Assembly: GCA_910585915.1 (NCBI GenBank)
Contig: CAJUGF010000001.1
Location: 4,622 to 68,621, forward strand
Length of the DNA stretch: 64,000 nt
Source: an uncultured Bacilli bacterium
GTDB lineage: Bacteria > Bacillota_I > Bacilli_A > RF39 > UBA660
Direction: 5' to 3'
The translations under genes were made by a program, and so were the position numbers. The notes beneath the pieces were generated by a model. It had not been told where the DNA came from. It searched no databases and was given only the letters and a program-made list of their open reading frames with translations. Every line of letters starts with the position of its first letter. Positions within the stretch are counted from its first letter, which is position 1. Shown here in pieces: positions 18,672-34,532 of the stretch.

Positions 18672-18758
18672 TTTACATAAAATGTTAATTTTTTATGTAA
18701 TTTTATTTGAAATAGATTATAATCATGATATATTCAATATAGTGTGGAGGGATTTTTA

Positions 18759-19460: not shown

Positions 19461-20131
19461 AAAATGAATTAATTGTTGATCAAAATCCTAAATCTTCAGT
19501 AGCAGAAGCAATTCGTATTGTTCGTACTAATCTTCAATTTTCTTCAGCAGATAAAGAAGTTAAAACAATTTTAGTAACTTCGTCGATCGCAGGAGAAGGA
19601 AAAAGTTTTATTAGTTCTAATTTGGCTATTGCTTTTGCTCAAAATGGAAAAAAAGTATTATTAATTGATTGTGATTTACGAAGAGGCCGTTTACATCGAA
19701 TTTTTAATCTTGAAAATGATAAAGGGCTTTCTAATCTTTTGATTTCTGATATTCAAGCAAATTTTTCAGGATATTTACAGAAGACTAGAATTAAAAATTT
19801 ATTTTTATTGTCTAGTGGTAGTGTTCCTCCAAATCCTAGTGAACTTTTGGATTCTAAGAAAAATGAAACTCTTATTGAACTTTTAAGTAAAAAGTTTGAT
19901 TATATTATTTTTGATGGAACTCCAGTTGGAGGATTAACTGATTCGGTTATTATGGCTAAATATGTAGATAAGGTAGCTATTGTATGTGCTGTTAATTATA
20001 CAAAGGTTGATCAACTTGTTAATACACAAAAGACTTTAGAGAATATTGAAGCAGATATTGCAGGTGTTATTGTTAATAAGATTCCTGATATGCATAGTAG
20101 TTATTATGGCAATTATTATGTAGAAGATTAA
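19457..20131 (+). CDS. Tyrosine-protein kinase (CpsD/YwqD BY-kinase, P-loop ATPase)
   Basis: Walker A SSIAGEGKSF, Walker A' LLIDCDLRR, and a C-terminal Tyr cluster YYGNYYVED. Confidence 0.88.
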   Translation: MKNELIVDQNPKSSVAEAIRIVRTNLQFSSADKEVKTILVTSSIAGEGKSFISSNLAIAFAQNGKKVLLIDCDLRRGRLHRIFNLENDKGLSNLLISDIQANFSGYLQKTRIKNLFLLSSGSVPPNPSELLDSKKNETLIELLSKKFDYIIFDGTPVGGLTDSVIMAKYVDKVAIVCAVNYTKVDQLVNTQKTLENIEADIAGVIVNKIPDMHSSYYGNYYVED

Positions 20132-20176
20132 TTGAAACTGGATTATAATTTTCAGTTTTTTCTTTTGGAGGATTGT

Positions 20177-20611
20177 ATGAAATATAAACGTGTATTAAAA
20201 TGGATATTTTTATTATTTTGGATGATTCTTATTTTTTCTTTTTCTTCTCAAAATGGTAGTACAAGTTCTTCTGTTTCTAATTTTTTTGTTTCTTTTTTTG
20301 AAAATCATTGTTTTTTGGCAGTTGATTTAGTATTTTTAATACGAAAGGGTGCTCATTTTTTTGAATATTTTATTTTAGGTGTTTTAGTTCTTTTTTTAAT
20401 TCGAGAATATGTTCTACAGGAATGGAGAGCATTATTGTATTCTTTTTGTTGTTGTCTTTTTTATGCTATTAGTGATGAGATTCATCAGCTTTTTGTTGTT
20501 GGAAGAAGTGGAAGAGTTATGGATGTTATTATTGATGGTTGTGGAGCACTTTTAGGAATTTTAATTTTTAGTTTTCTTCTGCTATTGAAAAAAAAGTCAA
20601 GAAAAAATTGA
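20177..20611 (+). CDS. VanZ-family membrane protein
   Basis: 4 TM; GAHFFEY ... DEIHQLFVVGRSGRVMDVIIDGCGALLG matches the VanZ-like signature. Confidence 0.7.
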   Translation: MKYKRVLKWIFLLFWMILIFSFSSQNGSTSSSVSNFFVSFFENHCFLAVDLVFLIRKGAHFFEYFILGVLVLFLIREYVLQEWRALLYSFCCCLFYAISDEIHQLFVVGRSGRVMDVIIDGCGALLGILIFSFLLLLKKKSRKN

Positions 20612-20875
20612 TATTTTGTCATTTTTGGTGTAAACTATGTAGTATAGTAGAGGGATTTGTCGAATGCCTTTTGTTGCATTGTCCTCTTTGCTTTTTATAA
20701 TAGTTTTTTTGAGGTGACTGGTATGATTTTTTTTCTTATAGGTAGTTTCTTTTTTTGTTATTCTTTTTGCGTTTCAGCATCTAAAGAAACTGTTGAGTTG
20801 GAGGAATGTTAATCTAAAGTTTGCATTCTGAGTGCTTTTTTGATATAGTTGTTCAGAAAGATAGTAGGGATGTTT

Positions 20876-22330
20876 ATGGCAAAAAGTAAGGGAAACAATA
20901 GATTAAGTACTAATACTTTTCGTATTTTTCGTATTGGTGGTTATGTAAGTTTTTTGCTCCTTATGATTTTTGATTATTTTTTATATCAGTTGGATGTATT
21001 GCCAAGCAAATATTTATTTTTGCTTTTGATTGTGACTTTATTAGTGGAGTTATTTGCTATTGGAGCAATTTTATTTTTTAAGAAGCCTCTTAAGATTGCA
21101 GGATTTGTTGTTGTTATAATTTTTGGCCTATTTAGTGGAATCGGTATTTATTATGGATATCATGCAAATTCTTTTTTAAATGATTCTTTTCGAAATAGTA
21201 AGCTTAATTCTTCTGCTACTTATTATATAATTGTTCCAAATGATAGTAATATCTCTTCAATAAACGATATTGATTCAACCTTTTCTTATTTGTCTGGAAC
21301 TTATTTAATTGATCAAGCTCTTATTAGTTTTCAGGAGAAAAAAAATATTCAAATGACTTCTTATGATGATGCACTTACTATGTTTCAGGATTTAAAAAGT
21401 CATTTGATTTTAGGTGCTTTAGTAGATCAGACTTCTTATCAATTGATTTTAGAAATGAAAAATGAATTTGTAGAAAGTGATTTTAAAGTAATTGATTCTT
21501 TTGAGGTTCAAATGGAAGTAGAAAATGATACGATTAGTAATAGTTCTGATAAGTTTCAAGTTTATATTGGGGGAAATGATTTTACGAATAGTTTAATGGA
21601 CTTTAATATGATTGTGACTATTAATACGAAGAGTCATCGAATTTTATTTACGAGTATTCCTCGTGATTATTATATTCCAGTTTTTGGATATGATGGAAGA
21701 CGTGATACATTAAGTTTTATGGGTGCCCGAGGTATTGAAGTTAATCGTAGGTCTTTGGCTGATTTTTTAGGAATGGATTTAAATTATTTTATGAAGCTTG
21801 AAACGAAGAGTTTGGTAGGTATTGTAGATCAAGTGGGGGGAATTACTTATTGTTCTGATCGAAGTTTTACTACTACGCATGCAACAATATTGGATACTTA
21901 TGATGATTCTAAGGGGAATAAGTTAGATGTTAAAAAAGGATGCCAGAAATTAAATGGGATTGAAGCTTTGACTGTTGCTCGTGAACGCCTTGCATTTCCA
22001 GGTGGAGATCGTCAACGTCAAAAGAATTGTCAACAAATTATTATGGCAATTTTCAAACAACTGATTAGCACTAATACTATTACTAATTATAATAATATTT
22101 TAAGTTCTTTAAGTGATTTATATCAAACTAATATTCCAAGAGAGATCATTACTGATTTAATTAAAGAAACCATTGCTGGAGCAGAGTGGGATATAGAGAA
22201 TCAATCTATGGATGGAAGTGATTCTAATAATTTTGTTCATTTGTCTAATTTAAGAAGCTATGTTATGATTCCTAACCCTGATTCTGTGGAAGAAGCAAAA
22301 ATAAAAATGAAGGATATTTTAGATTCTTAG
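20876..22330 (+). CDS. LytR-CpsA-Psr (LCP) family glycopolymer-peptidoglycan ligase
   Basis: N-terminal TM segments then the LCP core (ILFTSIPRDYYIPVFGYDGRRDTLSF ... LVGIVDQVGGI). Confidence 0.85.
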   Translation: MAKSKGNNRLSTNTFRIFRIGGYVSFLLLMIFDYFLYQLDVLPSKYLFLLLIVTLLVELFAIGAILFFKKPLKIAGFVVVIIFGLFSGIGIYYGYHANSFLNDSFRNSKLNSSATYYIIVPNDSNISSINDIDSTFSYLSGTYLIDQALISFQEKKNIQMTSYDDALTMFQDLKSHLILGALVDQTSYQLILEMKNEFVESDFKVIDSFEVQMEVENDTISNSSDKFQVYIGGNDFTNSLMDFNMIVTINTKSHRILFTSIPRDYYIPVFGYDGRRDTLSFMGARGIEVNRRSLADFLGMDLNYFMKLETKSLVGIVDQVGGITYCSDRSFTTTHATILDTYDDSKGNKLDVKKGCQKLNGIEALTVARERLAFPGGDRQRQKNCQQIIMAIFKQLISTNTITNYNNILSSLSDLYQTNIPREIITDLIKETIAGAEWDIENQSMDGSDSNNFVHLSNLRSYVMIPNPDSVEEAKIKMKDILDS

Positions 22331-22404
22331 GAATTTATATATCTTTTTTTCTTGGTAATTGGAAGCATACGTGTTATAATATTTCCACTTTTGGTGGGGT
22401 GCAT

Positions 22405-22950
22405 ATGAATATTTTAAACGATAAACATATTTCAAAAATGGATGCGATTACTTTGGATTATACTTATAAGTATCCTAGAGAGTATCCAGGGAAAACTATG
22501 TGTGGGGTTTCTTCTGATAGTCTTCAATATCATTATGAAATTTTACTTCAAATGATGTTAAAAGAGCAAATTCCAGATATTTTTTCTATTTTTAAATTAC
22601 TTCAAGGGTACGAAGTATTTAAGGCACAAGAAGAACTTGCTAGTCTTGGAGATATGTCATTGCATAGAGTTATAGGTGATGAAAATTTTAGTGGTTTCTT
22701 TTGCTTTTTTTGCCCATTAAAATTATCAGATAGTCAATTATTAAGATTACGAATGTGGTATGAATATACTAAAATTAGATCGTGTTGTTTGAATTTTCAT
22801 GTCTTATCTTATCAAGGATTTGTTGATTATGAAGCTACTTCTGATGTTCAATCTTATTTTCAACAACAACAAATTATGGATGATGAATTTGTGTTATCTC
22901 TTGTTAAAAAATATCCTAATTATTGTGATTTTTATGATATAGCATCTTAA
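22405..22950 (+). CDS. Hypothetical protein
   Basis: ORF with RBS GGTGGGGTG; Cys-rich; no recognisable domain. Confidence 0.4.
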   Translation: MNILNDKHISKMDAITLDYTYKYPREYPGKTMCGVSSDSLQYHYEILLQMMLKEQIPDIFSIFKLLQGYEVFKAQEELASLGDMSLHRVIGDENFSGFFCFFCPLKLSDSQLLRLRMWYEYTKIRSCCLNFHVLSYQGFVDYEATSDVQSYFQQQQIMDDEFVLSLVKKYPNYCDFYDIAS

Positions 22951-23014
22951 ATATTAAATATGGGTGTTTGTTCTAAAACATGATATTTTCTATATATTTT
23001 ATATAGGTGATACC

Positions 23015-24922
23015 ATGTTTTTTAATGATGTTCATACTAGAATTCGTTTTGTTTTTTTAGTGGTTTTATGTATTTTACTTGCGATTGTGATTCGGGTATT
23101 TTATATTCAAGTATTTCAATATGAAAAACTTCATGATTTAGCATCTTCATTATGGAGTAGGGAACTTCCTATTACAGCCGATCGAGGAGAAATTGTGGAT
23201 CGTAATGGAAAAGTCTTAGCAACTAATATTACGACGACTTCTTTGGTTATTATTCCTAATCAGGTTGTTAATCCAGAAGAGGTCTCCAAAAAGCTTTCTG
23301 ATATTTTAAAGTGTGATTATGAAGCAATGCTTCGTCATGTTACAAAGAAGACAAGTATTGAACGAGTTCATCCAGAGGGACGTCAGCTTTCTTATGATAT
23401 TGCTTCACAAATTGATGATTTGAATTTGGATGGGGTTTATTTGGTTAAGGAAAGTAAACGATATTATCCTTATGGAAATGTTCTTTCACATGTTTTAGGT
23501 TATGTAGGAATTGATAATCAAGGTTTATCAGGTCTTGAAATGACTTATGATCAATATTTAACAGGAGAAAATGGAGCAATTAAGTATTTTTCAGATGGTA
23601 AGGGAAATCGTTTGGAAATGACAGAGGTATATGAGGAGCCTCAAAATGGAATTAATTTGCAATTAACAATTGATTTAGATATTCAGCTTGCGGTTGAACG
23701 TGAACTTGATAATATTATGACTAAGTATACACCAGAACATGCTCTTATTATGGCAATGAATCCAAAAACTGGTGAAATTTTAGCAATGGGTAGTCGTCCT
23801 AGTTTTGATTCAAATGATTATCAATCTTATTCTACTGAGGTTATTAATCGAAATTTACCTATTTGGATGACTTATGAACCAGGATCAACTTTTAAAATCA
23901 TGACGCTTGCTGCTTCGATGGAAGAAAAAACGATTAATTTGTTTGAGGATCAATATTTTGATGGAGGAGCAATTACAGTTGAAGGTGCCACCATTCATTG
24001 TTGGAAACATGGTGGACATGGAGCACAAACATTTTTAAATGTAGTTGAAAATTCTTGCAACCCTGGGTTCGTTGTAATGGGACAGAAACTAGGGACAGAA
24101 ACACTTATGAAGTATATTCGAAATTTTGGTTTTGGGTCTAAAACTGGTATTGATTTAAATGGAGAAAGTAATGGTATTTTATTTAAAAATGAAAATATGG
24201 GGCCCGTAGAGCTTGCAACAACTAGTTTTGGGCAAGGTATTTCGGTTACTCCGATTCAACAAGTTACAGCAGTATCTGCAGTAGTAAATGGTGGAACTCT
24301 TTATCAGCCTTATATTGTTGGAAGTATGTTAGAGCCAGAAACTAATTCCATAATCCAAAAAAATGAACCAAAGGTAGTTCGTCAGGTGATTAGCGAAGAA
24401 TCTAGTAAGATGGTGCGTTATGCTCTTGAAAGTGTTGTGGCTCATGGAAGTGGAAGAAATGCTTATATTGAAAATTATCGTGTTGGGGGAAAAACGGGAA
24501 CGGCGCAAAAGGTTTTAAATGGAGCATATCAAGCGGGAAATTATATTTTATCTTTTATTGGATTTATGCCAGCAGATGATCCTGAAATTGTGGTTTATGT
24601 AGCTGTAGATCATCCTGTTGGAGTTGTGCAATATGGAGGAACTGTATCTGCACCTATTGCTAAAAGTGTCTTACAAACGGCCATTGAAGTACTCGATATT
24701 GATCCAAGTAGTGAAGGTATGGAAAAAGAGTATAATTGGATGGACACAAAATATGTGACTTTACCTGATGTTACAGGGATGACTTTGGATGAAGCTAAGA
24801 AAGTTTTAAAAGGATTTAATTTGGAATATTCTGGAGATGGAGAAACTGTTTTGTATCAAAGTCCAAGTGCAGGGTATTATGTTCGAGAGGGAGGAACAGT
24901 TAAATTAATGCTTCAATCATAA
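23015..24922 (+). CDS. Class B penicillin-binding protein (second FtsI/PBP2x/SpoVD-like transpeptidase) with C-terminal PASTA domain
   Basis: TM anchor, STFK (SxxK), SCN, KTGTA, and a C-terminal PASTA-like segment (VTLPDVTGMTLDEAKKVLKG). Confidence 0.88.
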   Translation: MFFNDVHTRIRFVFLVVLCILLAIVIRVFYIQVFQYEKLHDLASSLWSRELPITADRGEIVDRNGKVLATNITTTSLVIIPNQVVNPEEVSKKLSDILKCDYEAMLRHVTKKTSIERVHPEGRQLSYDIASQIDDLNLDGVYLVKESKRYYPYGNVLSHVLGYVGIDNQGLSGLEMTYDQYLTGENGAIKYFSDGKGNRLEMTEVYEEPQNGINLQLTIDLDIQLAVERELDNIMTKYTPEHALIMAMNPKTGEILAMGSRPSFDSNDYQSYSTEVINRNLPIWMTYEPGSTFKIMTLAASMEEKTINLFEDQYFDGGAITVEGATIHCWKHGGHGAQTFLNVVENSCNPGFVVMGQKLGTETLMKYIRNFGFGSKTGIDLNGESNGILFKNENMGPVELATTSFGQGISVTPIQQVTAVSAVVNGGTLYQPYIVGSMLEPETNSIIQKNEPKVVRQVISEESSKMVRYALESVVAHGSGRNAYIENYRVGGKTGTAQKVLNGAYQAGNYILSFIGFMPADDPEIVVYVAVDHPVGVVQYGGTVSAPIAKSVLQTAIEVLDIDPSSEGMEKEYNWMDTKYVTLPDVTGMTLDEAKKVLKGFNLEYSGDGETVLYQSPSAGYYVREGGTVKLMLQS

Positions 24923-25031
24923 TTTAGTGATTTTTCTATATAATAAAATAGGTGTAAAATTGTGTCAAAAAGTAAAGCAGATCAAAGGTTTGTCACAAGA
25001 GCATGTTATAATAAGATATGAGGTGAGCGTT

Positions 25032-26024
25032 ATGCTAATTCTTGCCAAAGCAGCCATGGCGATGATGCTTGGATTTATTTTTTCAATTTTGTGTGCATTA
25101 ATTTTAATTCCACTTCTTCGGAAATTGCATGTTGGACAAAGTGTTAGTAAAACGCTTGGTGAGCGTCATTTGAAAAAAGATGGTGTCCCTACAATGGGAG
25201 GGCTCATTTTTATTATTCCAGTGATCGTTTCGTTAGTTTTTTTATATTTTAATAAAAGCATTCAAATAAATCATAATTTGATTATTTTGGTTTTGGTCTT
25301 TTTAGCATATGCTGGACTGGGATTTATTGATGATTTTTTAAAAATTCATTTTCGAAATAATACTGGACTTAAAATAACTAGTAAGTTATTAATTCAAATG
25401 GTGATTGCTCTTGTATTTTTTTATATTTTTATGAAAAATGGTGGAGAACCTATTCTTCGAATTACATCACTCCGTTTGGTTATTCCAATGGGGTGGATGT
25501 TTGGTTTATTTATTTTATTCTTGTTAGTTGGTACTAGTAATGCTGTTAATATTACTGATGGATTGGATGGATTAGCTGGGGGACTTTGTGTTATTGCTTT
25601 CTTTGCATTTGGAGTCATTTCTTGGAATACTGGATGGATGGAAGGATACCAAGAGATTGCCATTTTCTGCTTTATTTTAGTAGGAAGTTTGCTTGGATTT
25701 TTACTTTTTAATACACATCCTGCAAAAATTTTTATGGGTGATTTAGGGAGCCTTGCGTTAGGAGGAGCTCTTGCTACTATTGCTATTTTAACACGACATG
25801 AATTGTCTTTGGGCCTTGTTGGAGGGGTATTTGTAGTGGAGACGATTTCTTCATTTATTCAAATTGTTTCCATTCGCAAATTTCATAAAAAAATATTTAA
25901 AATGGCACCTTTGCATCATCATTTTGAACAACTTGGATGGGCAGAAACAGATATTGTTAAATTGTTTTGGGTTATTGGTCTTATTTTGGCAATGGCAGCG
26001 ATTACGTATGGAGTGTGGATTTAA
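25032..26024 (+). CDS. mraY: Phospho-N-acetylmuramoyl-pentapeptide-transferase
   Basis: RBS GAGGTGA; 10-TM MraY fold, with DD motif region (NAVNITDGLDGLA) and HHHFE. Confidence 0.92.
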   Translation: MLILAKAAMAMMLGFIFSILCALILIPLLRKLHVGQSVSKTLGERHLKKDGVPTMGGLIFIIPVIVSLVFLYFNKSIQINHNLIILVLVFLAYAGLGFIDDFLKIHFRNNTGLKITSKLLIQMVIALVFFYIFMKNGGEPILRITSLRLVIPMGWMFGLFILFLLVGTSNAVNITDGLDGLAGGLCVIAFFAFGVISWNTGWMEGYQEIAIFCFILVGSLLGFLLFNTHPAKIFMGDLGSLALGGALATIAILTRHELSLGLVGGVFVVETISSFIQIVSIRKFHKKIFKMAPLHHHFEQLGWAETDIVKLFWVIGLILAMAAITYGVWI

Positions 26025-26047
26025 CAGATAGTTTATCTGTTTTTTGT
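26025..26047 (+). terminator. Intrinsic terminator after mraY
   Basis: ACAGATA-gtt-TATCTGT hairpin plus a T6 run. Confidence 0.55.
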
Positions 26048-26098
26048 TGTAAATTTTTACTTTTTGTTTTATTATAATCCCAATTTGGGAGGATTAAG

Positions 26099-27004
26099 AT
26101 GAGTGACCAATTTAATGAAGCAGTAACGCAAAATATGGAAAAATCTTATGAGCGTGAGGATCAATTTTTTTTAGAATATTATAATTATTTAAAACAGTAT
26201 CCCACTGTTATTTCACGATTTCACCGACTTTGTCGAAATCTTTCAAGAGATTTAAGGATTATTTTAAAAGCTGAAATTTTGCCAACTCTTTCTTTTTATG
26301 ATCAACAGAAATACTATGATATGTTATCAGATTTTGATATGCGTATTTTGGACGAAGCTTTAGATTGTATTCGTGAAATTGCAACTTCAAAAGATTCACA
26401 AAAGGAATTAAGAAAATGGGCAAAACTTCCTTGGTTTGATATTCAAAATTATGATGATGAATATTATACTGTAACTTTTTTAGGGCATCAATATTCTTTT
26501 CAATCACTTCGATTTCTTTATGGTAGTGATGTAGAGAAAATTTGTGATTTTCATCGAATGGAACATTACTCTGTTCATGATGAAGTAGGGTATGATGCAT
26601 ATGCACCTGGAAATTTGGATTATGCTTGTCATTTTTCTAGTTATCATTTTGCATTGATGCATCCAAATCTTTATGCTATGACTAGTTTATGTCCTCATAC
26701 AGTAAATGATGGTGTCTGGTATCATAGTTATAATCTGTCTGGTAATGAAAAGACAGTGTATGATGTTGCGAATGGATTTATTATGGATTATGATTGTTTT
26801 CAAAAACTTTTGGAACCAATTAATTTGGATCAAACTTTAGGTGCAAGCATTTTAGAAAGAGAAAAGGAATTACTTCAGGCAGATAATTTTTTTTACCAGA
26901 TGTATGGCGATTATTGCCCATTAAAAGGGTTTGCTTTCCAAAATTTCGATCGAATGGAACAAGCTGAACAGGCAAAACTTTTAAAAAATATTTCCAGATT
27001 TTAA
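26099..27004 (+). CDS. Hypothetical protein (Cys/His/Tyr-rich, no TM)
   Basis: RBS GGGAGGA; no recognisable domain. It occupies the slot where murD is commonly found between mraY and ftsW. Confidence 0.45.
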   Translation: MSDQFNEAVTQNMEKSYEREDQFFLEYYNYLKQYPTVISRFHRLCRNLSRDLRIILKAEILPTLSFYDQQKYYDMLSDFDMRILDEALDCIREIATSKDSQKELRKWAKLPWFDIQNYDDEYYTVTFLGHQYSFQSLRFLYGSDVEKICDFHRMEHYSVHDEVGYDAYAPGNLDYACHFSSYHFALMHPNLYAMTSLCPHTVNDGVWYHSYNLSGNEKTVYDVANGFIMDYDCFQKLLEPINLDQTLGASILEREKELLQADNFFYQMYGDYCPLKGFAFQNFDRMEQAEQAKLLKNISRF

Positions 27005-27021
27005 AAAGGGGAGGATTTTCT

Positions 27022-27837
27022 ATGACGCAGTATTCTGTGCTACCAAAAAAATATCAATTTGACCTATTACCTCAAATTGATAGCTATTCTCATTGTCGTA
27101 TTTATGACAATGAACTTATTATTAAAGAATATGAATCATGTTGTTATAATTTGTCAGTGCTTGATCAAATTATTCATTTGGATTTGCCTGGATATTCTTT
27201 TGCAGAAAGAATTTATTGTAATGAGGATTTATCTAAATTTTATCTTGTTGGTCCATTTTATAAAGATTATTGTAGTATAAGCGATGCTAATTTTATTATA
27301 TCTGATAAGGTTAATGGATTAATTGTTATGAAAAAAATGTTACTTCATTTAAAAGAGGCACATAAAAAAGGTTTTAATCCTTATGATAATCATGGAGGAA
27401 ATTATATAGTAAATTCTTTTTTGAATGTTTTAGGAATTGACTGTGATTATTCTTGTTTTCGAAAGCAATTTACTTTTGTTATTGATTCTATTCCAGCATA
27501 TTTTGAAGATTTTTTTGATAATGATATGTTTATAGATTTTCAATTTTCATCTTATTATTTGAACCTATTTGATAAGTTTCAGATGTTAGATATGTTCTTT
27601 TATTATCTTCGATTTAATGAATTTAGAAGGTATAATATTTTTGGAATTGAGGTTTTGAATCAAATTAAACCTATTTTAAGAGATATTCCTTTACCCAATA
27701 ATGTTCAAAATTATTTACAAAAGTTATTTTGTGGAATGATACCAAATTTCGATGATTATTTTATTGAAGAACTTATTGATCCTTTGATTTGTTACTATGC
27801 TAATCAAAATGTGAGAAAGAGAAAAGGAGAAGAATAA
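27022..27837 (+). CDS. Hypothetical protein with possible protein-kinase-like (PKL) fold
   Basis: RBS GGGGAGGA. HLKEAHKKGFNPYDNHGGNYIVN resembles the catalytic-loop pattern of APH/Kdo/RIO-type kinases (H..D....N.hv). The following LGIDCDYS resembles the DFG-equivalent IDxD. Tentative. Confidence 0.35.
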   Translation: MTQYSVLPKKYQFDLLPQIDSYSHCRIYDNELIIKEYESCCYNLSVLDQIIHLDLPGYSFAERIYCNEDLSKFYLVGPFYKDYCSISDANFIISDKVNGLIVMKKMLLHLKEAHKKGFNPYDNHGGNYIVNSFLNVLGIDCDYSCFRKQFTFVIDSIPAYFEDFFDNDMFIDFQFSSYYLNLFDKFQMLDMFFYYLRFNEFRRYNIFGIEVLNQIKPILRDIPLPNNVQNYLQKLFCGMIPNFDDYFIEELIDPLICYYANQNVRKRKGEE

Positions 27838-27886
27838 TCTTCTTTTTTTTTCATAATATTTTATAGGCGTCAAAAGGAGGAGAAAA

Positions 27887-28972
27887 ATGAAAAATAAGAA
27901 AATGGATTATTTTTTGTTTTTTGCTGTTCTTTTGATTGGAGTCTTTGGAATGATTATGATTTATTCTGCAAGTAGTATTTGGGCAGAATATAGGTTTCAT
28001 GATGCATTTAAATTTGTGAAAGCACAAGCCGTTTTCTTTCTTGTAGGGATTATACTTATCAATGTGATATCAAAGATTGATTATCATTTGTATCTTAAAT
28101 ATTCAAATAAAATTTTAGCCATTTGTTTTCTTTTACTAGTGTTAGTATTAATTCCTGGCATCGGAACAATTCGAAATGGATCTCGAAGTTGGTTTGGGCT
28201 TGGTGGTTTTGGTATTCAACCTTCTGAGTTTGCTAAGATTGGTTTAATTATTTATACTGCTAAGTATTTATCAAAGCACCAAAGAGAGATGCGAGATATT
28301 AAGAAGGGTGTTTTACCAATTTTGATGGTTATTGGCGTTTTTTTCTTACTTATTATGTTGGAACCTGATTTTGGAACAGCTATGGTTATTGTTTTAACAT
28401 TAGTGTGTATGATTTTTGTAAGTGGCGTTAAGATTTCCTTCTTTGTAAAAATGGGCCTTTTAGGGATTTTAGGAATTGTTGCACTTATTATTGTTGCACC
28501 ATATCGAATGGCAAGAATTGTTTCATTTTTAAATCCATGGACAGATCCTTTAGGAAGTGGATTTCAAATTATTCAATCGCTTTATGCAATTGGACCTGGG
28601 GGATTACTTGGGCAAGGATTTTTGAATAGTCATCAAAAGCATTTTTATTTGCCAGAGCCACAAACAGATTTTATTTTTTCAATTATTAGTGAAGAATTCG
28701 GCTTTCTTGGTGTTTTGATTGTGGTTAGTTTTTTCTTTTTCATTTTTTATCGTACTTTAAAGATTAGCATGAGTACAAATGATGCTTTTGGAAAATATTT
28801 ATCTTTTGGTCTTTCTTTTGGTATTATTATTCAAGCTGTTTTGAATTTATGTGTTGTTATTGGATTAATTCCTGTCACAGGAGTTACTTTGCCATTTTTA
28901 TCTTATGGAGGAAGTAGTTTACTCGTAAGTATGGCGAGTATTGGAATTATTTTAAATATTAGCAAAAATTAA
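27887..28972 (+). CDS. ftsW: SEDS-family peptidoglycan glycosyltransferase FtsW/RodA
   Basis: RBS AAAGGAGG; 10-TM SEDS protein with PFLSYGGSSLL-type C-terminal motif. Confidence 0.9.
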   Translation: MKNKKMDYFLFFAVLLIGVFGMIMIYSASSIWAEYRFHDAFKFVKAQAVFFLVGIILINVISKIDYHLYLKYSNKILAICFLLLVLVLIPGIGTIRNGSRSWFGLGGFGIQPSEFAKIGLIIYTAKYLSKHQREMRDIKKGVLPILMVIGVFFLLIMLEPDFGTAMVIVLTLVCMIFVSGVKISFFVKMGLLGILGIVALIIVAPYRMARIVSFLNPWTDPLGSGFQIIQSLYAIGPGGLLGQGFLNSHQKHFYLPEPQTDFIFSIISEEFGFLGVLIVVSFFFFIFYRTLKISMSTNDAFGKYLSFGLSFGIIIQAVLNLCVVIGLIPVTGVTLPFLSYGGSSLLVSMASIGIILNISKN

Positions 28973-29072
28973 CTATAGTTATAATGATTAGATTTTTATG
29001 AGTTTTTTGAAATTTTAGTGTTGCCAAACTAACTGTTCAATGTCATAATAATTTTCGAAGGTGATTTTTAAC

Positions 29073-32000
29073 ATGAAATTAACAAAGGAACAACAAAAAT
29101 TGTGGAATGTATATCATTATGCTTTTCCCTCTATAGATCAATTTTTAGATTTTTATAATCATGCTTTTAATGATTCGAAGCAAAATGTGAAGATAAGTTT
29201 TCAACAGTTGATGCAGCAGTATTTAAAAAAACATATGAATGTTGATTTAATGATGAATTATCTTAATCAGTTGAATATCAATTATAATTCTTCTAGTCAA
29301 GAAATTCGTATTAAATTACGTCCTTTTTATCAATTATTAGATCAATTGGATTATTGTTTAGCAATGGATGATGCAGCAGTATTAATTGAGTATCCTTTGT
29401 TTCAAACTTTATTTTCTAAACTTTTTGGTCAAAATAAAATAATAGCTGAGGATCAATTTCAAAAATTGGCGAATGATAGTATTTATTTTGAAATTTTATG
29501 TCGTGTTTATTTAGATTGTCATGATATTGAAGTAGATGAATCTTTAAATAATAAAGATGATAGAACTTTATCTAAGACAAAGATTTTGACTCATGAGGAG
29601 GAAATTGAATTAGCGAAAAGAATTGAAGCTGGTGATATAAAGGCTCAAGAAACTTTTATTTTAGCAAATCAACAATTAGTTAAGTATGTTGCAAAGAGTT
29701 ATATTGGAAATGGTCTTGAATTTGATGATTTGTTTCAAGAAGGAATCATAGGACTTATGACAGCTATTCAAAAGTTTGATTATCAAAAAGGTTATAAATT
29801 TTCTACTTATGCTGTTTGGTGGATTCGTCACGCAATATATCATGCTATAAGAAAGGCTAGAGCGATTCCAGTACCAACTTATCGCGAACAAGAATATAAT
29901 CATATTATGAAGGTGCATGCTCAACTGGTGAATGAGCTTCAACGGAAACCATCTTTAGATGAATGGGCAAATCATTTAGGAATGGAGAAAGAAAGCTTGC
30001 AAGAAATAGTCAACTCTATTCCTAATGTAGTATCATTCGAAAGCAAAGTATCGAGTGAAGATGATAAAGAACTTGGGGATTTTTATGAAGATTCAAAGGC
30101 ACGTTTTGAGGAAGATGTCGTTCAAAGACAATATGTTTCGGAAATATTAAAATTGAGTAAAGAAATATTAAGTGAAAAAGAATATCAAGTTTTATTACTT
30201 CGATTTGGATTAGCTGATGGAACCAGTTATACTTTAGAAGAAGTTGGAAGAAAATTTAATGTAACAAGAGAAAGAATTCGTCAAATTGAAGCTAAGGCAT
30301 TAATAAAATTGAAGCATAGTTTGAAATATGAAAAGAATAAAACATTACATTTAGCTGAGAATGAACCTAACTTAGAAGAAGTTGGAAAAAAATTTAATGT
30401 AACGAGAGAGAGAACTCGTCAAATTGAGAACGCTATGAATGAACCTAGCTTAGAAGAAGTTGGAAATAAATTTAATGTAACAAGTGAGAGAACTTGTCAA
30501 ATTGAGAACACTATGAATGAACCTAACTTAGAAGAAGCTGAGAAAAAAATTAATGTAACAAGAGAGAGAACTTGTCAAATTGAGAACGTTATGAATGAAC
30601 CTAACTTAGAAGAAGCTGGGAAAAAAATTAATGTAACAAGAGAGAGAACTTGTCAAATTGAGAACACTATGAATGAACCTAGTTTAGAAGCGAAAAAAAA
30701 ATATACAAAGTTTGATATTCATCTTCTTCATTCTTCCCTTTCTATATCTTTACTTGTGGATTTTATTAAACTTTTTCCAAAACATGATCAAAAACTGTAT
30801 TGCTGTTTGAGAGGAATTCAGTTGTCTCAAAAAGATATCGTTCCAATAGAAGATGATTCATTTAATGATAAACAAAAGAAATATATCACTATTATTGAAA
30901 ACGATCTGAAGGCTATGGCATGTGAATATTTTTATTATATTAAAAAACGAAAATGTGATAAGGAAGTTGCTTTAAAGCATCTTGCAAAAGTTATGGTAAT
31001 AAAATTTCTTCGTTTTCGATATCCTAATTCTACACTATCTATGATTATGGATGCAGTGAAAAAACTTCCGTTAGAACAACGTCAGGCTATATATCGAGTG
31101 CATGGTGAAGATTTGTGTTCTTATTTGTTAGGTGTAGGTGTCAGACAAAAAAAATCAAGTTTGTTAAATCTTGCCTATAAAGATATTGCTGCTATTTTAA
31201 ATGAACATGAAGTGGTTCATATCAAGACAAGAAGTAATACTTTGTTTTTACTTATGGAGAAATATCCAGAGATTTCTTTAGAACAATGGATTTTAAATAT
31301 ACAATCTTTGCCAAAAAAACAAAGAGAAATTATGCAGTATGTTCATGGAGAGAGCCTCGATCAGAATCGATCTTTTTCAAGTCAAGACAAAGTGAGGCAA
31401 TATGCTAACTATCAAAATGGACTTCGAAGTTTAGAACAATTGGCAAATGGAACTAGAAGAGTTATTACACTAAAGGAACAAAAGAAAAATATGCTGTTTT
31501 TACTTATGGAGAAATATCCAGAGATTTCTTTAGAACAATGGATTTTAAATATACAATCTTTGCCAAAAAAACAAAGAGAAATTATGCAGTATGTTCATGG
31601 AGAGAGCCTCGATCAGAATCGATCTTTTTCAAGTCAAGACAAAGTGAGGCAATATGCTAACTATCAAAATGGACTTCGAAGTTTAGAACAATTGGCAAAT
31701 GGAACTAGAAAAGTTATTACACCAAAAGAAAAATTGTTCAAAATATTGAAAGTTGATAATGTTCAGATTTTAAATGAAGCATTAGAGCAACTTGAACTTT
31801 TTGAAAGGGATGTATTTTATTCTGTACATGGACAAACATTTGAAGAGTATCATGAGATTTCTAATTTTCAAGAGTATGAAAGAGTGTTTGAAAAACTAAG
31901 TGGAATAATGTTAGAAATACAAAAAGGGAAAAAGGATACCTTACTATCTTTACTTATGAAGAAGTATCCTGATATTACGAAAAAGCACTGGCATGTTTTT

Positions 32001-33080
32001 ATTAATGCTTTATCACCCAAGCAAAAGGAAGTTATTTATGAGGTAAATGGTGTAGATCTTGATGAAAGTAATTGGATTTCTAGGAATTTACCTTCCAAAA
32101 TTTATGAACGTTATTATTATGCAATTCAAAATTTGGAAGCACTAGCACAAAAAGCCTTTAATAAAACGGAGGAAAGAGATAAAAACATTATTGATGTTTA
32201 TGGAACTGAAAGAGTACGTTTTATTTTTCAATTTTTGAATAAAGAAGAATTATCTGTCTTTTTGTATCGTCATGGTGCTGATTTGAATGAATGCAATGAA
32301 TTTCCAGAACATTTAAATCATTTAAGAAATATGTATATTTGTACTATTGAAAAAATGAAAAATTTGTTAGAAATTTATACTGATTTATTGCAAGAATTTT
32401 TAGATTGTGTAGGACTTGCTTCTTTTGAAGAGGCACAGCATTTTATTTCGCTTTTAAGCATTGAAGAACAAGCAATTATTTATCAGCGGAGAGGAGAAAA
32501 ATTAAATACATTAAATTCTTTTATCTATGGTAAATCATTTGCTTATTATAAACGGCAGTATGATGATGCAGTGCAACATTTAAAAAAATTAAAGAAAGAA
32601 GATAATCAAAGAAAAGAATATAATCAAAGAAAAGAAGAAATTATTAATAGAGAAATTTTAGAATCTCAAAAGAAAATATTACTTGATGCAAAATTAAGTC
32701 AATATCAACAAAGTCTTTATTGTGAGTTTTTCCAATTATATGGAACTTTGATAAATGAATATGATTTAATGCGTGTTATTAATAAATCTCTTCTTTCTTA
32801 TACTTCTAGTGAGGGACTTTCTGTTGAAGTGTCAAGTCATTTTAAAGTTGAGACAGCGGTTTTAGAAATGTTAGTTTGTCAATATCAAATGGTGCAGAGT
32901 CAAGAATTGTTTGAGGCAATTAATAGTATTTTAAGTGTAAACTTAGCAGAAAAGTATTCATTTGTTAAAAAGAATATTATGTCTCCAGTGATTTATGCAG
33001 TGTTTCAAAAATATGTTGATCAACAGTTAATTTTTGAGGGGCTTGAAAAACCAGTTATTAAAGCTTATCAGATGAATTAA
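29073..33080 (+). CDS. Giant sigma-70-family protein: N-terminal unknown domain + complete sigma regions 2-4 + tandem region-4 repeats + ~900-aa C-terminal extension
   Basis: Residues about 175-420 carry canonical sigma regions 2.1-2.4 (DLFQEGIIGLMTAIQKFDYQKGYKFSTYAVWWIRHAI), region 3 and region 4 (LLLRFGLADGTSYTLEEVGRKFNVTRERIRQIEAKALIKLK). After that come ~4.3 in-frame 26-aa repeats (about four copies) re-copying the 4.2 helix, then multiple LPxxQRxxxxxxHGEDL-type modules. Confidence 0.8.
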   Translation: MKLTKEQQKLWNVYHYAFPSIDQFLDFYNHAFNDSKQNVKISFQQLMQQYLKKHMNVDLMMNYLNQLNINYNSSSQEIRIKLRPFYQLLDQLDYCLAMDDAAVLIEYPLFQTLFSKLFGQNKIIAEDQFQKLANDSIYFEILCRVYLDCHDIEVDESLNNKDDRTLSKTKILTHEEEIELAKRIEAGDIKAQETFILANQQLVKYVAKSYIGNGLEFDDLFQEGIIGLMTAIQKFDYQKGYKFSTYAVWWIRHAIYHAIRKARAIPVPTYREQEYNHIMKVHAQLVNELQRKPSLDEWANHLGMEKESLQEIVNSIPNVVSFESKVSSEDDKELGDFYEDSKARFEEDVVQRQYVSEILKLSKEILSEKEYQVLLLRFGLADGTSYTLEEVGRKFNVTRERIRQIEAKALIKLKHSLKYEKNKTLHLAENEPNLEEVGKKFNVTRERTRQIENAMNEPSLEEVGNKFNVTSERTCQIENTMNEPNLEEAEKKINVTRERTCQIENVMNEPNLEEAGKKINVTRERTCQIENTMNEPSLEAKKKYTKFDIHLLHSSLSISLLVDFIKLFPKHDQKLYCCLRGIQLSQKDIVPIEDDSFNDKQKKYITIIENDLKAMACEYFYYIKKRKCDKEVALKHLAKVMVIKFLRFRYPNSTLSMIMDAVKKLPLEQRQAIYRVHGEDLCSYLLGVGVRQKKSSLLNLAYKDIAAILNEHEVVHIKTRSNTLFLLMEKYPEISLEQWILNIQSLPKKQREIMQYVHGESLDQNRSFSSQDKVRQYANYQNGLRSLEQLANGTRRVITLKEQKKNMLFLLMEKYPEISLEQWILNIQSLPKKQREIMQYVHGESLDQNRSFSSQDKVRQYANYQNGLRSLEQLANGTRKVITPKEKLFKILKVDNVQILNEALEQLELFERDVFYSVHGQTFEEYHEISNFQEYERVFEKLSGIMLEIQKGKKDTLLSLLMKKYPDITKKHWHVFINALSPKQKEVIYEVNGVDLDESNWISRNLPSKIYERYYYAIQNLEALAQKAFNKTEERDKNIIDVYGTERVRFIFQFLNKEELSVFLYRHGADLNECNEFPEHLNHLRNMYICTIEKMKNLLEIYTDLLQEFLDCVGLASFEEAQHFISLLSIEEQAIIYQRRGEKLNTLNSFIYGKSFAYYKRQYDDAVQHLKKLKKEDNQRKEYNQRKEEIINREILESQKKILLDAKLSQYQQSLYCEFFQLYGTLINEYDLMRVINKSLLSYTSSEGLSVEVSSHFKVETAVLEMLVCQYQMVQSQELFEAINSILSVNLAEKYSFVKKNIMSPVIYAVFQKYVDQQLIFEGLEKPVIKAYQMN
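30358..30695 (+). repeat. In-frame tandem repeat, 78-bp unit x ~4.3, inside the giant sigma gene
   Basis: ATGAATGAACCTA(A/G)(C/T)TTAGAAGAAG ... recurs at 30435, 30513, 30591 and 30669, with a partial first copy at about 30358. It encodes NEP(N/S)LEE(V/A)GKK(F/I)NVTRERT(R/C)QIEN.M, a fragment of the region-4.2 HTH. Confidence 0.9.
31240..31745 (+). repeat. Near-perfect 252-bp tandem duplication (2 copies) inside the giant sigma gene
   Basis: A block of about 200 identical bases (AAATATCCAGAGATTTCTTTAGAACAATGG ... GGCAAATGGAACTAGAA) occurs at about 31257 and again at about 31509. It encodes LLMEKYPEISLEQWILNIQSLPKKQREIMQYVHGESLDQNRSF ... twice. Confidence 0.9.
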
Positions 33081-33201
33081 GTTATTTTTTGATCTTGTTT
33101 GTGATATAATTTTATTAGATTTATTCATACCTTTTACTTTTAATTTATTAATAGTCATTCGTGTACGGTTTAAATCAATATGTTTTGAAGGAGGTACTTG
33201 A

Positions 33202-33390
33202 GTGGCTGATAAGAATATAACTTGTAAGATGTGTGGACAAGAATTTACTTTTACTGTTGGAGAACAAGAATGGTATTCAGAGCGTAATTTGAATGAACCA
33301 AAGTATTGTAAGACTTGTCGTGCAGAAAGAAGAAAACAAAAAGAAAAACAAAATAATATTCATAATGATTCGGTAAAGAAAGCTGCATAG
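33202..33390 (+). CDS. Small zinc-ribbon protein (zf-trcl-like, CxxC ... CxxC)
   Basis: RBS GAAGGAGG then GTG. CKMCGQEFTFTVGEQEWY ... CKTCR matches the probable zinc-ribbon small-protein family. Confidence 0.6.
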   Translation: MADKNITCKMCGQEFTFTVGEQEWYSERNLNEPKYCKTCRAERRKQKEKQNNIHNDSVKKAA

Positions 33391-33455
33391 CTTTTTTTCT
33401 TTTTGATAAACAAATGAATATAATTATAGTATAATGTATAAAAGGAGTCGTTAAT

Positions 33456-34532
33456 ATGAAAATCATAGTATCGGCAGGTGGTAGTTTTGGACATATTAAT
33501 CCTGCTTTAGCGATTATAAAAAAATTTCAAGAAAAGGAAAAAGATTTGGAAGTTTTATATATTGGTACCCATAATCGAATGGAAAAGGAGATTGTTCCAA
33601 AGGAGGGTATTCCTTATGAAGAAATTGAGATTTATGGTTTTACTAAGAATATGAAGCGCAACTTTAAAAATATCGGTTGTATTTATCATGCTACTAAAAA
33701 AGTTGAAAAGATTATAGATAAGTTTCAGCCAGATGTTGTAATTGGAGTAGGCGGCTATGTTACTTATCCAGTTTTGAAAGCTGCTCATAAAAAACATGTT
33801 AAGACTTTTATTCATGAGCAAAATAGTATTCCAGGAAAGAGTAATAAGATGATTGCTCGTTATGCCGATTTGATTGGTGTTACTTTTCAGACTTCGAAGT
33901 CGTATTTTAAAACAAAAGGCAAAATTGTTTATACTGGACACCCTTGTGGAGCGCAGGCTTTGTTAGAACCTAAACTTAATAAAAGTGATTTTGGTCTTTC
34001 AAAAACAAAGAAACTTGTTATTGTTATGGCAGGAAGTCTTGGAAGTTCTTCTTTGAATCGAAAGATGAAAGAAATGTTATACCAAGTAGGTCGTGAAAAT
34101 TTTGAAGTTTTATATGTGACAGGAAAAGCAAATTATGAGGAGTTTATGGAGGGGAAAAAGTTTCCCGATAATGTTTTTGTAAGACCCTATATTGATCATT
34201 TAGTTGGACTATTGAAATCTGCTGATGTTGTTATTTCAAGAGCTGGAGCTGCGTCTTTGTATGAACTTATTGCACTTCACATTCCAAGTATTATTGTTCC
34301 AAGTCCGAATGTAGCAAATAATCATCAGTATTATAATGCGAAAGAGATGAGTGAAAAGGGAGCTTTTGTGATGATTGAAGAAAAAAATTTGAATGCGGCT
34401 TTGATACTTCAAAAAATAAAAGAAATGTTAGATGATAGTGCGAAACGCATAGAATTAATTCAAAATATGAAGAAGTTGTCTATATTGGATAGTTCAGAAA
34501 TCATCTATCGTGAAATAAAGGAAATGATCTGA
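33456..34532 (+). CDS. murG: UDP-N-acetylglucosamine--N-acetylmuramyl-(pentapeptide) pyrophosphoryl-undecaprenol N-acetylglucosamine transferase
   Basis: MKIIVSAGGSFGHINPALAI (GT28 N-domain G-loop) and the C-terminal GT28 domain. Confidence 0.92.
   Translation: MKIIVSAGGSFGHINPALAIIKKFQEKEKDLEVLYIGTHNRMEKEIVPKEGIPYEEIEIYGFTKNMKRNFKNIGCIYHATKKVEKIIDKFQPDVVIGVGGYVTYPVLKAAHKKHVKTFIHEQNSIPGKSNKMIARYADLIGVTFQTSKSYFKTKGKIVYTGHPCGAQALLEPKLNKSDFGLSKTKKLVIVMAGSLGSSSLNRKMKEMLYQVGRENFEVLYVTGKANYEEFMEGKKFPDNVFVRPYIDHLVGLLKSADVVISRAGAASLYELIALHIPSIIVPSPNVANNHQYYNAKEMSEKGAFVMIEEKNLNAALILQKIKEMLDDSAKRIELIQNMKKLSILDSSEIIYREIKEMI

Follow-up and report, generated by a model that had tools for sequence, protein, structure and literature searches.

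What occupies the place of murD between mraY and the ftsW/spoVE-type SEDS gene in this 64,000-nt stretch of DNA (the window) from an uncultured Bacilli bacterium, and does it bear any relation to the wall-synthesis genes on either side? In B. subtilis the order is murE-mraY-murD-spoVE-murG-murB, whereas here it runs PBP, mraY, two slot genes and SEDS, and between the second PBP and mraY there is likewise no murE. The original prediction had placed in this slot two genes for cytoplasmic proteins of 301 and 271 aa, here called ORF1 and ORF2, each with a strong RBS, and in these respects our analysis agreed with it throughout. The coordinates are exactly as claimed (Table 1), and the RBS reads GGGAGG, 7 nt 5' of the ATG, for ORF1 and GGGGAGG, 5' of the ATG, for ORF2. 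Neither protein has a TM segment, the maximum Kyte-Doolittle values over 19 residues being 0.70 and 0.94, as compared to 2.72 for MraY. As a description, set against the gene order of B. subtilis, talk of an occupied murD slot is correct.

Table 1. Features of the mraY-ftsW slot and of related genes in the window, with positions counted from the first letter of the window
Feature	Position	Strand	Description
murC	5790-7205	-	TIGR01082 2e-133
mraY	24927..26024	+	Glycos_transf_4 7.4e-37 plus MraY_sig1 (Pfam); upstream slot boundary
8-bp hairpin over mraY stop codon	26023..26041	+	followed by T-run 26042-26047; weak terminator-like
Promoter-like element	26047..26078	+	TTGTAA, 17-nt spacer, TATTAT; 9/12 match (consensus only)
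ORF1	26099..27004	+	301 aa, ATG start; cytoplasmic, no assigned family
ORF1 C-terminal domain	26606..26848	+	candidate triad Cys177 (26627-26629), His209 (26723-26725), Asp222 (26762-26764)
ORF2	27022..27837	+	271 aa, ATG start; soluble divergent Hanks-type protein-kinase-like domain
K35 codon	27124..27126	+	beta3 (VAIK-equivalent) Lys; 24/24; aligned to the MARK2 VAIK Lys
Catalytic segment H114 to D142	27361..27447	+	alphaE His H114, loop PYD122-NHGG-N127, metal-binding I-D140-C-D142
D184-K185 codons	27571..27576	+	D184 aligns with the subdomain IX (alphaF) Asp (4eqm: D of DIYSIG)
15-bp A/U-rich hairpin over ORF2 stop codon	27819..27852	+	T-run; terminator- or attenuator-like
ftsW/spoVE-type SEDS gene	27887..28972	+	Pfam FTSW_RODA_SPOVE 8.5e-119; downstream slot boundary
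Giant sigma gene	29061-33080		one gene beyond ftsW

Position is the one argument for taking the two ORFs as the remnants of a degraded murD, and we rejected this explanation, which is almost certainly wrong. Neither ORF matched Mur_ligase, Mur_ligase_M, Mur_ligase_C or TIGR01087 in Pfam and NCBIfam at E<=1, and a tblastn search with the window's own MurC as the query recovered murC alone, the sole Mur ligase within the 64 kb. Moreover, each ORF is intact and has been conserved in several species, and the fold identified for ORF2 is a different one. The lack of any Mur-ligase signal in either ORF is what had been anticipated from the letters of the sequence.

The identity of ORF2 emerges from its relatives. 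ORF2 itself has no match in Pfam, PF00069 included, or in NCBIfam at E<=1, and its homology to kinases is therefore transitive through its family, which consists of about 23 clusters at 50% identity. Pfam Pkinase is matched by 18 of 24 family members (E<=1, best 3.3e-9), whereas APH (PF01636, best 1.9e-4), Kdo (PF06293, 3.3e-4) and RIO1 (PF01163, 5.3e-5) are each matched by three, and all of these matches are out-scored by Pkinase. A few members also give a weak choline-kinase match. A stringent profile made from 14 sequences of the family matched 61 PDB chains at E<=0.01, and the best 60 of these 61 are all protein kinases, either eukaryotic-type or bacterial Hanks-type, with no APH, Kdo or RIO structure among those 60. 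The top match is S. aureus PknB (4eqm), for which the stringent profile gives 2e-6 and the full one 3.8e-11. The earlier view of ORF2 as kinase-like is upheld by these matches to solved kinases and by the retention of K35, D122, N127 and D140, but its assignment to an APH/Kdo/RIO type is not, since, judged by profile comparison, the family is nearer to the Hanks-type Ser/Thr kinases. The AF2 model of ORF2, built from a four-sequence alignment, is unreliable (pLDDT 44) and served for qualitative purposes only. Some apparent relatives were set aside: a weak BLAST match of ORF2 to a 537-aa protein at 1618-3231 was rejected, with no catalytic motif aligned; the "kinase-POTRA fusion" P0016 is probably an assembly chimera, given its 1.4x coverage and a composition break; and the deltaproteobacterial locus L002 is a pattern artefact, an antisense frame of a membrane protein.

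Scoring conservation on the alignment of the 24 family sequences, where the mean column identity is 29%, we found that the invariant columns are limited to K35, N127 and D140, so the ORF2 motif is more than a chance resemblance. Nearly as well conserved are D122, D184 and K185 (23/24 each) and H114 (22/24). In the profile searches, the loop lines up with HRDLKxxN, and the metal site with DFG, in p38gamma, MARK2 and S. aureus PknB, which bears out the proposal that the D...N stretch is the catalytic loop and IDxD the metal-binding site. D122 and N127 are five residues apart, with P and Y standing where HRD has H and R, and D140 follows 13 residues after N127, as D-C-D in ORF2 and as D-F-D in most of the family; position 142 is D or E in 21/24. 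The motif H...YDNHGGNYIVN...LGIDCDYS described earlier is present, but the spacings given for it, x9 and x7, were slightly too long, and the true string is H114-x6-YDNHGGNYIVN(121-131)-x5-LGIDCDYS(137-144). The beta3-Lys/alphaC-Glu pair, which had been suggested as a check, is represented by its Lys, K35, and not by its Glu: position 48 is E or D in 10/24, and the neighbouring columns hold no conserved acid. The region before beta3 (LLPQIDSYSHCRIY) contains no glycine-rich loop GxGxxG, and the family alignment has no conserved Gly column there. Finally, no invariant Glu or Arg was seen in the regions expected to hold the APE motif and the subdomain XI Arg, where the alignment is gappy.

These losses, i.e. 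of the glycine-rich loop, the conserved alphaC Glu, the HRD that has become P-Y-D and the APE motif, would fit a pseudokinase acting as a nucleotide-binding or structural scaffold for wall-synthesis proteins, comparable to the pseudokinase domain of the mycobacterial MviN or to EssB/YukC, and documented bacterial pseudokinases do have degraded G-loops and scaffold roles (PMC12599244). However, the reviewed pseudokinase families have each lost at least one of the K, D, N, D catalytic positions (PMC12599244), and the retention of all four in the ORF2 family, invariant or nearly so amid such low column identity, is the reverse of what sets those families apart. We therefore consider a pseudokinase unlikely, with the caveat that a missing G-loop together with a weak alphaC acid (10/24) is often seen in pseudokinases.

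A further alternative, unlikely in our estimate, is that ORF2 phosphorylates not a protein but a small molecule, which might be a sugar, a nucleotide-sugar or a lipid-linked wall precursor, for example the undecaprenyl-linked intermediates made by MraY, whose gene adjoins the slot. Modification of a lipid-linked intermediate was the second of the two roles, besides a regulatory one, that the original prediction had put forward. ORF2 belongs to the same superfamily as APH, Kdo (WaaP) and RIO and has similar D-x-H-x-x-N and I-D-x-D/E motif forms; the loop form of its family, D-[IL]-H/K-x-x-N, and the I-D-x-D metal site are forms common in APH, choline-kinase and Kdo-type enzymes. The forms D-I-H-x-x-N and I-D-x-D thus recall small-molecule kinases as well. 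The weak APH, Kdo, RIO1 and choline-kinase matches in a few members, the absence from the family of an APE motif or a conserved activation segment, and the D-x-D variant known in the sugar kinase POMK (PMC12599244) point in the same direction. On the other side, the APH, Kdo and RIO matches are both weak and rare (3/24 each, 5e-5 to 3e-4) when set against those to Pkinase (18/24, 3e-9), the best 60 PDB matches are all protein kinases, and the core pair of alphaE His and alphaF Asp is retained. Furthermore, we know of no Bacillota wall pathway that needs a small-molecule kinase step of this kind.

Among protein kinases, the best profile match of ORF2 is to the PASTA kinases (S. aureus PknB/Stk1, 4eqm; PrkC; StkP), whose part in regulating wall synthesis and division is well known. 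They have in common with ORF2 the beta3 Lys, the catalytic Asp and Asn, the metal-binding Asp, the alphaE His and the alphaF Asp, but ORF2, at about 270 aa, is without a TM segment and without a PASTA or other sensor domain, and it lacks GxGxxG, a conserved alphaC Glu and APE, with P-Y-D standing for H-R-D and D-C/F-D for D-F-G. B. subtilis PrkD/YbdM and YabT are likewise small, of the Hanks type and devoid of an extracellular sensor, and PrkD consists of a kinase domain alone, about 256 aa long; unlike ORF2, they have canonical motifs, are recognised by Pfam Pkinase and are encoded outside the dcw cluster. The DYD kinases and pseudokinases and POMK offer another comparison, for they have no alphaC Glu, and the second acid of their D-x-D is the proposed partner of the basic residue in beta3 (PMC12599244). 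The ORF2 family resembles them in having D140-x-D/E142 in 21/24 and no conserved alphaC acid, but the DYD proteins are membrane-associated with a beta3 Arg and POMK is without the beta3 Lys, while ORF2 is a soluble protein whose beta3 Lys is invariant. A kinase or kinase-like gene linked to SEDS polymerase and class B PBP genes also has its parallel in the pstP-rodA-pbpA-pknA-pknB locus, where all Actinobacteria keep the kinases linked to rodA and pbpA and where the kinase genes are served by promoters of their own (PMC6554272). That locus, in contrast to the one described here, is related to the elongasome and is not part of the dcw cluster, and pknA and pknB encode canonical, membrane-anchored kinases paired with a PP2C phosphatase and FHA proteins, whereas the genes next to ORF2 encode neither a phosphatase nor an FHA protein nor any known substrate.

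The genomic address of ORF2 is shared by its homologs down to 34-39% identity, and mraY-[slot]-ftsW synteny was found in the window and at L019, L003/4, L007/8, L011/12, L013/14 and L001. Among relatives the slot may carry ORF1 and ORF2 together, either of them alone, or a pair of ORF1 paralogs, and the two genes are always at this address. Since either gene can be present there alone, ORF1 and ORF2 are not an obligate pair, and the original treatment of the two as a unit does not hold. Nor is the giant sigma gene their immediate neighbor, as had been stated; it does lie nearby, but one gene further on, past ftsW, in a slot between ftsW and murG that in relatives holds a giant sigma gene, thyA-dfrA or nothing. 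As ORF2 homologs keep their place in genomes without a giant sigma gene, dependence of ORF2 on that gene was rejected and the suggested functional tie between them is unlikely. Beyond the closest clade, one more distant member of the ORF2 family was found downstream of ftsZ-spoIIGA-sigE...sigG, and others are in unrelated contexts, with thiI/iscS, beside a phosphoketolase gene or beside folD.

The variable contents of this slot and the next raise the question of whether ORF1 and ORF2 might be unrelated accessory cargo with no part in wall synthesis, e.g. a module for stress, toxin or defence functions, that has gathered where a gap in the dcw cluster permits recombination. The IS element that adjoins the ORF2 homolog in L003, the slot's own promoter-like and terminator-like elements, and the SocA/Panacea gene and polysaccharide island present in the same cluster would be consistent with this. 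We regard it as quite improbable, however, because both families hold the exact address over a wide range of identity, 34-58% for ORF2 and 47-68% for ORF1, which argues for a long vertical residence. The slot has a G+C content of 0.277, in line with the 0.26-0.34 of its surroundings, and neither ORF has a PADLOC or PHROG match or any relative in 2.9 million viral contigs, so that a defence or phage origin is without support. Nevertheless, position alone may overstate the functional linkage, because this slot and the ftsW-murG slot both vary between relatives.

The original prediction took the slot genes to be co-transcribed with mraY and ftsW, which is doubtful because hairpin/T-run elements and -10-like boxes bracket the slot, a hairpin with a T-run and then a TATAAT-like box being found both after mraY and after the last slot gene. 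The hairpin at the mraY stop codon has a dG of -6.2 kcal/mol and a z of -1.67, and has fewer GC pairs than the consensus scan requires; the same ACAGAT..ATCTGT and T-run element, with stem variants, is found in the relatives' loci L013, L011 and L019. In the promoter-like element that follows, a perfect TATAAT (26073-26078) overlaps the TATTAT about 21 nt 5' of the ORF1 ATG, and a TATAAT or TATTAT box occurs at the same position in L007, L013, L011 and L021. The hairpin at the ORF2 stop codon (dG -15.5 kcal/mol, z -3.25) was flagged by the consensus scan, was not equalled by any shuffled sequence (0/200 fold as well) and has a CATAAT box and then the ftsW RBS on its 3' side, and an equivalent hairpin and T-run follow the last slot gene in L007, L013, L020 and L021. 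No RNA family was detected by Rfam in 22000-34000. From these elements, the slot genes appear to form a small transcription unit of their own inside the dcw cluster.

ORF1 is the more isolated of the two, with homologs in only 7 clusters among 5.8 billion sequences and no Pfam or NCBIfam match in a direct scan. Its AF2 model (pLDDT 74, pTM 0.75) has a helical bundle at residues 1-110, a small beta sheet at 114-136 and an alpha/beta domain at about 170-250. With the candidate triad of its C-terminal domain, ORF1, a two-domain cytoplasmic protein, is possibly an enzyme of the Cys-His-Asp kind, transglutaminase- or papain-like in chemistry, although the segment bearing Cys177 was modelled at a pLDDT below 50. 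Comparisons with known enzymes of that kind gave no support in Pfam, in PDB profiles or by hhalign: the full-length protein and the C-terminal domain had no relevant Pfam match, such as PF01841, at E<=5-10; their profiles had no relevant match in PDB, the sole one, to ARP9 at E 0.3, being due to chance; and hhalign of the domain against approximate NGLY1 and TGM2 cores gave a probability below 1%, which is weak evidence either way. Foldseek of the model against PDB likewise returned nothing below E 0.9.

Considering these findings together, we lean towards the interpretation that ORF2 is a divergent, Hanks-like and active kinase of wall synthesis or division, that ORF1 is a separate occupant of the slot, and that the slot is transcribed on its own. 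ORF2 would bind ATP-Mg and transfer phosphate by means of K35, D122, N127 and D140, with its core stabilised by alphaE H114 and alphaF D184; lost from it are GxGxxG, the first two residues of HRD, a conserved alphaC Glu and any recognisable APE. By analogy with the DYD kinases and POMK, D142 of D140-x-D142 may hold K35 in place of the alphaC Glu. The fixed address of ORF2 between mraY and FtsW/SpoVE in the closest clade makes a role in the wall or in division the most likely one, and it can be hypothesized that the component it phosphorylates belongs to the lipid II, SEDS-bPBP or division machinery; both the catalytic activity and the substrate are what we infer from sequence and context. The PASTA kinases and the actinobacterial pknA/pknB-rodA-pbpA genes would be the parallels for such a tie between phosphorylation and wall synthesis. 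Binding of a protein substrate by ORF2 is not assured, however, because no APE/Arg salt-bridge pair is evident, and the presence of ORF2 does not require ORF1. A bolder form of the hypothesis, improbable as it stands, would make ORF2 a dedicated, sensor-less mini-kinase of an unrecognised ePK-like family in low-G+C spore-forming Bacillota, gating the supply of lipid II or the activity of SEDS by phosphorylation of MraY, FtsW/SpoVE or a lipid-linked precursor, with ORF1 as a new cytoplasmic Cys-His-Asp enzyme in the same pathway.

Ser/Thr phosphorylation is a main means by which Gram-positive wall synthesis and division are tuned, and the known kinases are PASTA membrane sensors. ORF2 would fit this link between kinases and wall synthesis in an undescribed form, and a soluble, stripped-down kinase-like protein encoded between the genes for the lipid I synthase and SEDS would point to a direct cytoplasmic control point. 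The family of about 23 clusters is annotated as hypothetical because the curated models miss it, and it offers a natural case for testing how much of a kinase core can be dispensed with, with K-D-N-D kept, the G-loop and the alphaC Glu gone, and D-x-D at the metal site. The same slot contains, in ORF1, an orphan at the level of the fold. The window as a whole has a G+C content of 29% and carries a YqfD sporulation gene, which would suit an Erysipelotrichia-like member of the Bacillota. More broadly, the dcw cluster, as a rule strongly conserved, contains slots that vary in this lineage.

Two genes, one of 301 aa (ORF1) and one of 271 aa with kinase-like features (ORF2), each preceded by a strong Shine-Dalgarno sequence, occupy the slot between mraY and an FtsW/SpoVE-type SEDS gene as first described, and the search for transmembrane segments found none in either product. 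Their G+C content is that of the surroundings. With the B. subtilis gene order as the reference for the usual places of murE and murD, both of these are missing from their places and ORF1 and ORF2 stand at the murD position, so that the claim of an occupied murD slot holds relative to that order. The window carries a single Mur ligase gene, murC, which is oriented divergently to mraZ; murD, murE and murF are absent throughout the 64 kb, and the Mur ligase genes are therefore dispersed in this genome. These genes belong to a larger dcw cluster that is interrupted at several points. Beyond the first PBP it is broken by a SocA/Panacea-domain gene and then by a polysaccharide-synthesis island (Bac_transf, DUF1972/GT1, LicD, GT2, two unannotated membrane-size ORFs, Wzz, a CpsD-like ATPase, VanZ and LytR), and the second PBP is followed by mraY, ORF1, ORF2, the SEDS gene, a giant sigma gene, a zinc-ribbon gene, murG, murB and ftsQ/divIB. 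The 183-aa protein encoded before the second PBP had no match in any library scanned; a gene of 174-192 aa without a Pfam match stands at the equivalent position in three loci from other genomes (L007, L011, L021).

Features of the slot, the surrounding dcw cluster and other genes discussed
Feature	Position	Strand	Remarks
Large ORF	43-1548	+	501 aa
Large ORF	1618-3231	+	537 aa
murC	5790-7205	-	
mraZ	7376		dcw cluster
rsmH	7840		dcw cluster
First PBP	9072-11192		two PASTA matches
SocA/Panacea-domain gene	11236-12009	+	
Polysaccharide-synthesis island	12302-22330	+	~10 kb; before second PBP and mraY
Cytoplasmic protein, family unknown	22399-22950	+	183 aa; directly 5' of second PBP
Second PBP, SpoVD-like	22964-24922		one PASTA match
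mraY	24927-26024	+	upstream border of slot
Small hairpin and T-run	26023-26047	+	overlaps mraY stop codon; dG -6.2
Promoter-like TTGTAA-17-TATTAT/TATAAT	26047-26078	+	consensus match; then ORF1 RBS
ORF1	26099-27004	+	301 aa
ORF2	27022-27837	+	271 aa
15-bp hairpin and T-run	27819-27852	+	overlaps ORF2 stop codon; dG -15.5, z -3.25
SEDS gene (FtsW/SpoVE type)	27887-28972	+	downstream border of slot
Giant sigma gene	29061-33080	+	1339 aa
Zinc-ribbon gene	33202-33390	+	62 aa; CxxC...CxxC
Large ORF	43215-44849	+	544 aa
Second long sigma-70-family gene	61554-62831	+	425 aa

ORF2 had no match in Pfam or NCBIfam, and a word-indexed search gave only three close relatives. Searching 1.84 billion representatives exhaustively with HMMER, the seed profile recovered 23 proteins (14 with E<=1e-10), and the resulting alignment of 24 sequences has a mean column identity of 29%. 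The profile of this alignment matched solved Ser/Thr kinases in the PDB, among them MARK2 and S. aureus PknB (4eqm), with E-values as low as 9e-12. K35 aligned with the VAIK Lys, PYD122...N127 with HRD...N and D140 with the DFG Asp, which bears out the kinase-like catalytic signature first read in ORF2. Since the weakest added members might themselves be ordinary kinases, we built a stringent profile anew, using only the 14 members that matched the seed at E<=6e-12. This profile matched 61 PDB chains at E<=0.01, the best 60 of the 61 all being kinases; the top match was again 4eqm (2.1e-6), in an alignment extending to residue 213 with D184 on the subdomain IX Asp. Even the four-sequence seed profile found p38gamma, its sole PDB match, in register (E 0.09). 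The AF2 model of ORF2 is poor (pLDDT 44), its order of elements being compatible with a kinase N-lobe and hinge. Member by member, Pfam gave Pkinase in 18/24 and APH, Kdo and RIO1 in three each. Taken together, these results make the fold very probably protein-kinase-like and nearer the Hanks-type kinases than the APH/Kdo/RIO group originally named. A kinase of small molecules or lipid-linked precursors, to which the few APH and Kdo matches would be congenial, is rather unlikely. Occupying the place of murD, the two genes might also be its remnant, which is exceedingly improbable given the kinase alignments of ORF2.

Only K35, N127 and D140 are invariant in the alignment, and D122, H114, D184 and K185 are each conserved in 22-23 of the 24. 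The catalytic spacing in ORF2 is D122-x4-N127-x12-D140; the motif originally described is present, with gaps of x6 and x5 instead of x9 and x7, and in distant members the strings come close to canonical, for example HSDLHSNNIMIN...LIDLDLS. The departures from canonical kinases are considerable: no glycine-rich loop was found in ORF2, HRD is replaced by P-Y-D and DFG by D-C-D (D-F-D in most of the family), and no APE/Arg pair is evident in the 24 sequences. Of the expected beta3-Lys/alphaC-Glu pair, the lysine stands in all 24 sequences, but an acidic residue (E or D) fills the alphaC position in just 10. In DYD kinases and POMK, the alphaC Glu can be replaced by the second Asp of a D-x-D motif (PMC12599244), and D142, where 21/24 members have D or E, could by analogy do the same. 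A pseudokinase scaffold, which such degeneracy might suggest, is unlikely: K-D-N-D is strictly conserved, which speaks for an active enzyme. Bacterial pseudokinase families have lost at least one of the catalytic K, D, D residues (2025 review, PMC12599244), whereas the ORF2 family has lost none and matches none of those described; DYD proteins are membrane-bound with Arg at the beta3 position, and in the DLHK family the beta3 Lys is missing.

Among the relatives, L007/8 (ORF1 identity 48%) has the full arrangement of LytR, a 174-aa unknown, PBP, mraY, ORF1, ORF2, ftsW, giant sigma, zinc ribbon, murG, murB and ftsQ. An ORF2 homolog is alone in the slot in L013/14 (39% identity, with thyA-dfrA at the giant sigma position), in L011/12 (43%, with ftsW inverted) and in L001 (34%, otherwise intact with one frameshift), a locus that lacks both ORF1 and the giant sigma gene. 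Similarly, an ORF1 homolog is alone between mraY and ftsW in L021, and L020 has two tandem ORF1 paralogs (2-247 and 258-1193) 5' of ftsW; a kinase-like gene is absent between the second of them and ftsW. The two genes are therefore separable, contrary to their original treatment as a pair; each of them stays between mraY and ftsW, and neither needs the giant sigma gene to be present. That they are unrelated accessory cargo, as the variable content of the slot could be taken to mean, is improbable beside this retained address. The single +1 frameshift of L001 (492-1308, in a MAG labelled "uncultured Tenericutes"), near residue 83, points either to misassembly or to a gene that became a pseudogene very recently. 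In L003 an IS element (41-1398; rve integrase and HTH gene) lies immediately 5' of the ORF2 homolog, at the position of ORF1 and mraY in the window. More distant ORF2-family members lie 3' of ftsZ-spoIIGA-sigE...sigG (L005), between thiI and iscS near ezrA (L009, L023), or adjoining a phosphoketolase gene (L015) or folD (L017). A fusion to an FtsQ POTRA domain was set aside as a probably chimeric contig, and 2.9 million viral contigs held no member of either family.

Co-transcription with mraY and ftsW had been proposed. A hairpin with a T-run and a promoter-like box mark each border of the slot, with a CATAAT box and the ftsW RBS coming after the downstream hairpin (elements within 27819-27870), and equivalent hairpins, T-runs and TATAAT-like boxes flank the slot in L007, L011, L013, L020 and L021 whatever gene is inside, with varying stem sequences. 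As these elements are common to the relatives, consensus and thermodynamic matches, though not proof, suggest a separate or at least attenuated transcription unit instead, with putative terminators and promoters internal to the dcw cluster.

That PASTA kinases regulate peptidoglycan synthesis in Bacillota is well established. In Actinobacteria, pstP-rodA-pbpA-pknA-pknB is conserved throughout, its kinase genes having separate promoters, and offers a precedent for linkage of a kinase to a SEDS and bPBP pair (PMC6554272). Compared with both, ORF2 has no sensor or membrane anchor, and it differs in its degenerate N-lobe motifs, its D-x-D site and its position inside the dcw cluster. It is a new and very divergent form of an enzyme type already known, in a location that is unusual and conserved. 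On the best-supported reading, we infer that ORF2 would be an active, soluble, minimal Hanks-type kinase whose targets would belong to the machinery of wall synthesis or division. A role specific to sporulation (SpoVD/SpoVE-linked) is a plausible variant, given the lone PASTA match of the upstream PBP and the position of one distant homolog after sigG.

ORF1 remains an orphan. It has only seven homolog clusters (47-68% identity), and neither it nor these matched Pfam, NCBIfam, PADLOC, PHROG or PDB profiles. Its AF2 model can be used (pLDDT 74, pTM 0.75): residues 1-110 form a confidently predicted N-terminal helical bundle, followed by a small sheet, a linker that is modelled poorly (157-178) and, at the C-terminus, an alpha/beta domain. 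Foldseek with the model found nothing, profile searches with the domain alone gave no relevant match, and hhalign of the domain against approximate sequences of two transglutaminase cores was negative. A Cys-His-Asp enzyme is a tentative lead, not a result.

The NCBIfam scan of the first two of three large ORFs without a Pfam match gave no match; both have signal- or TM-like N-termini. The zinc-ribbon gene (zf_Tbcl in relatives) lies just 5' of murG in L003, L007, L013 and L020, with or without the giant sigma gene, which is absent from the equivalent slot in L013 (thyA, dCMP deaminase and dfrA instead), L020 and L001. The second long sigma-70-family gene has a C-terminal extension past region 4. 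The giant sigma protein, also of the sigma-70 family and 1130-1285 aa in relatives (L003, L007), has regions 1.2-4 at aa 170-425, several extra region-4-like repeats (NVTRERxxQIE) beyond them, and a long C-terminus rich in repeats, where a stretch of ~95 aa is duplicated almost perfectly in tandem.
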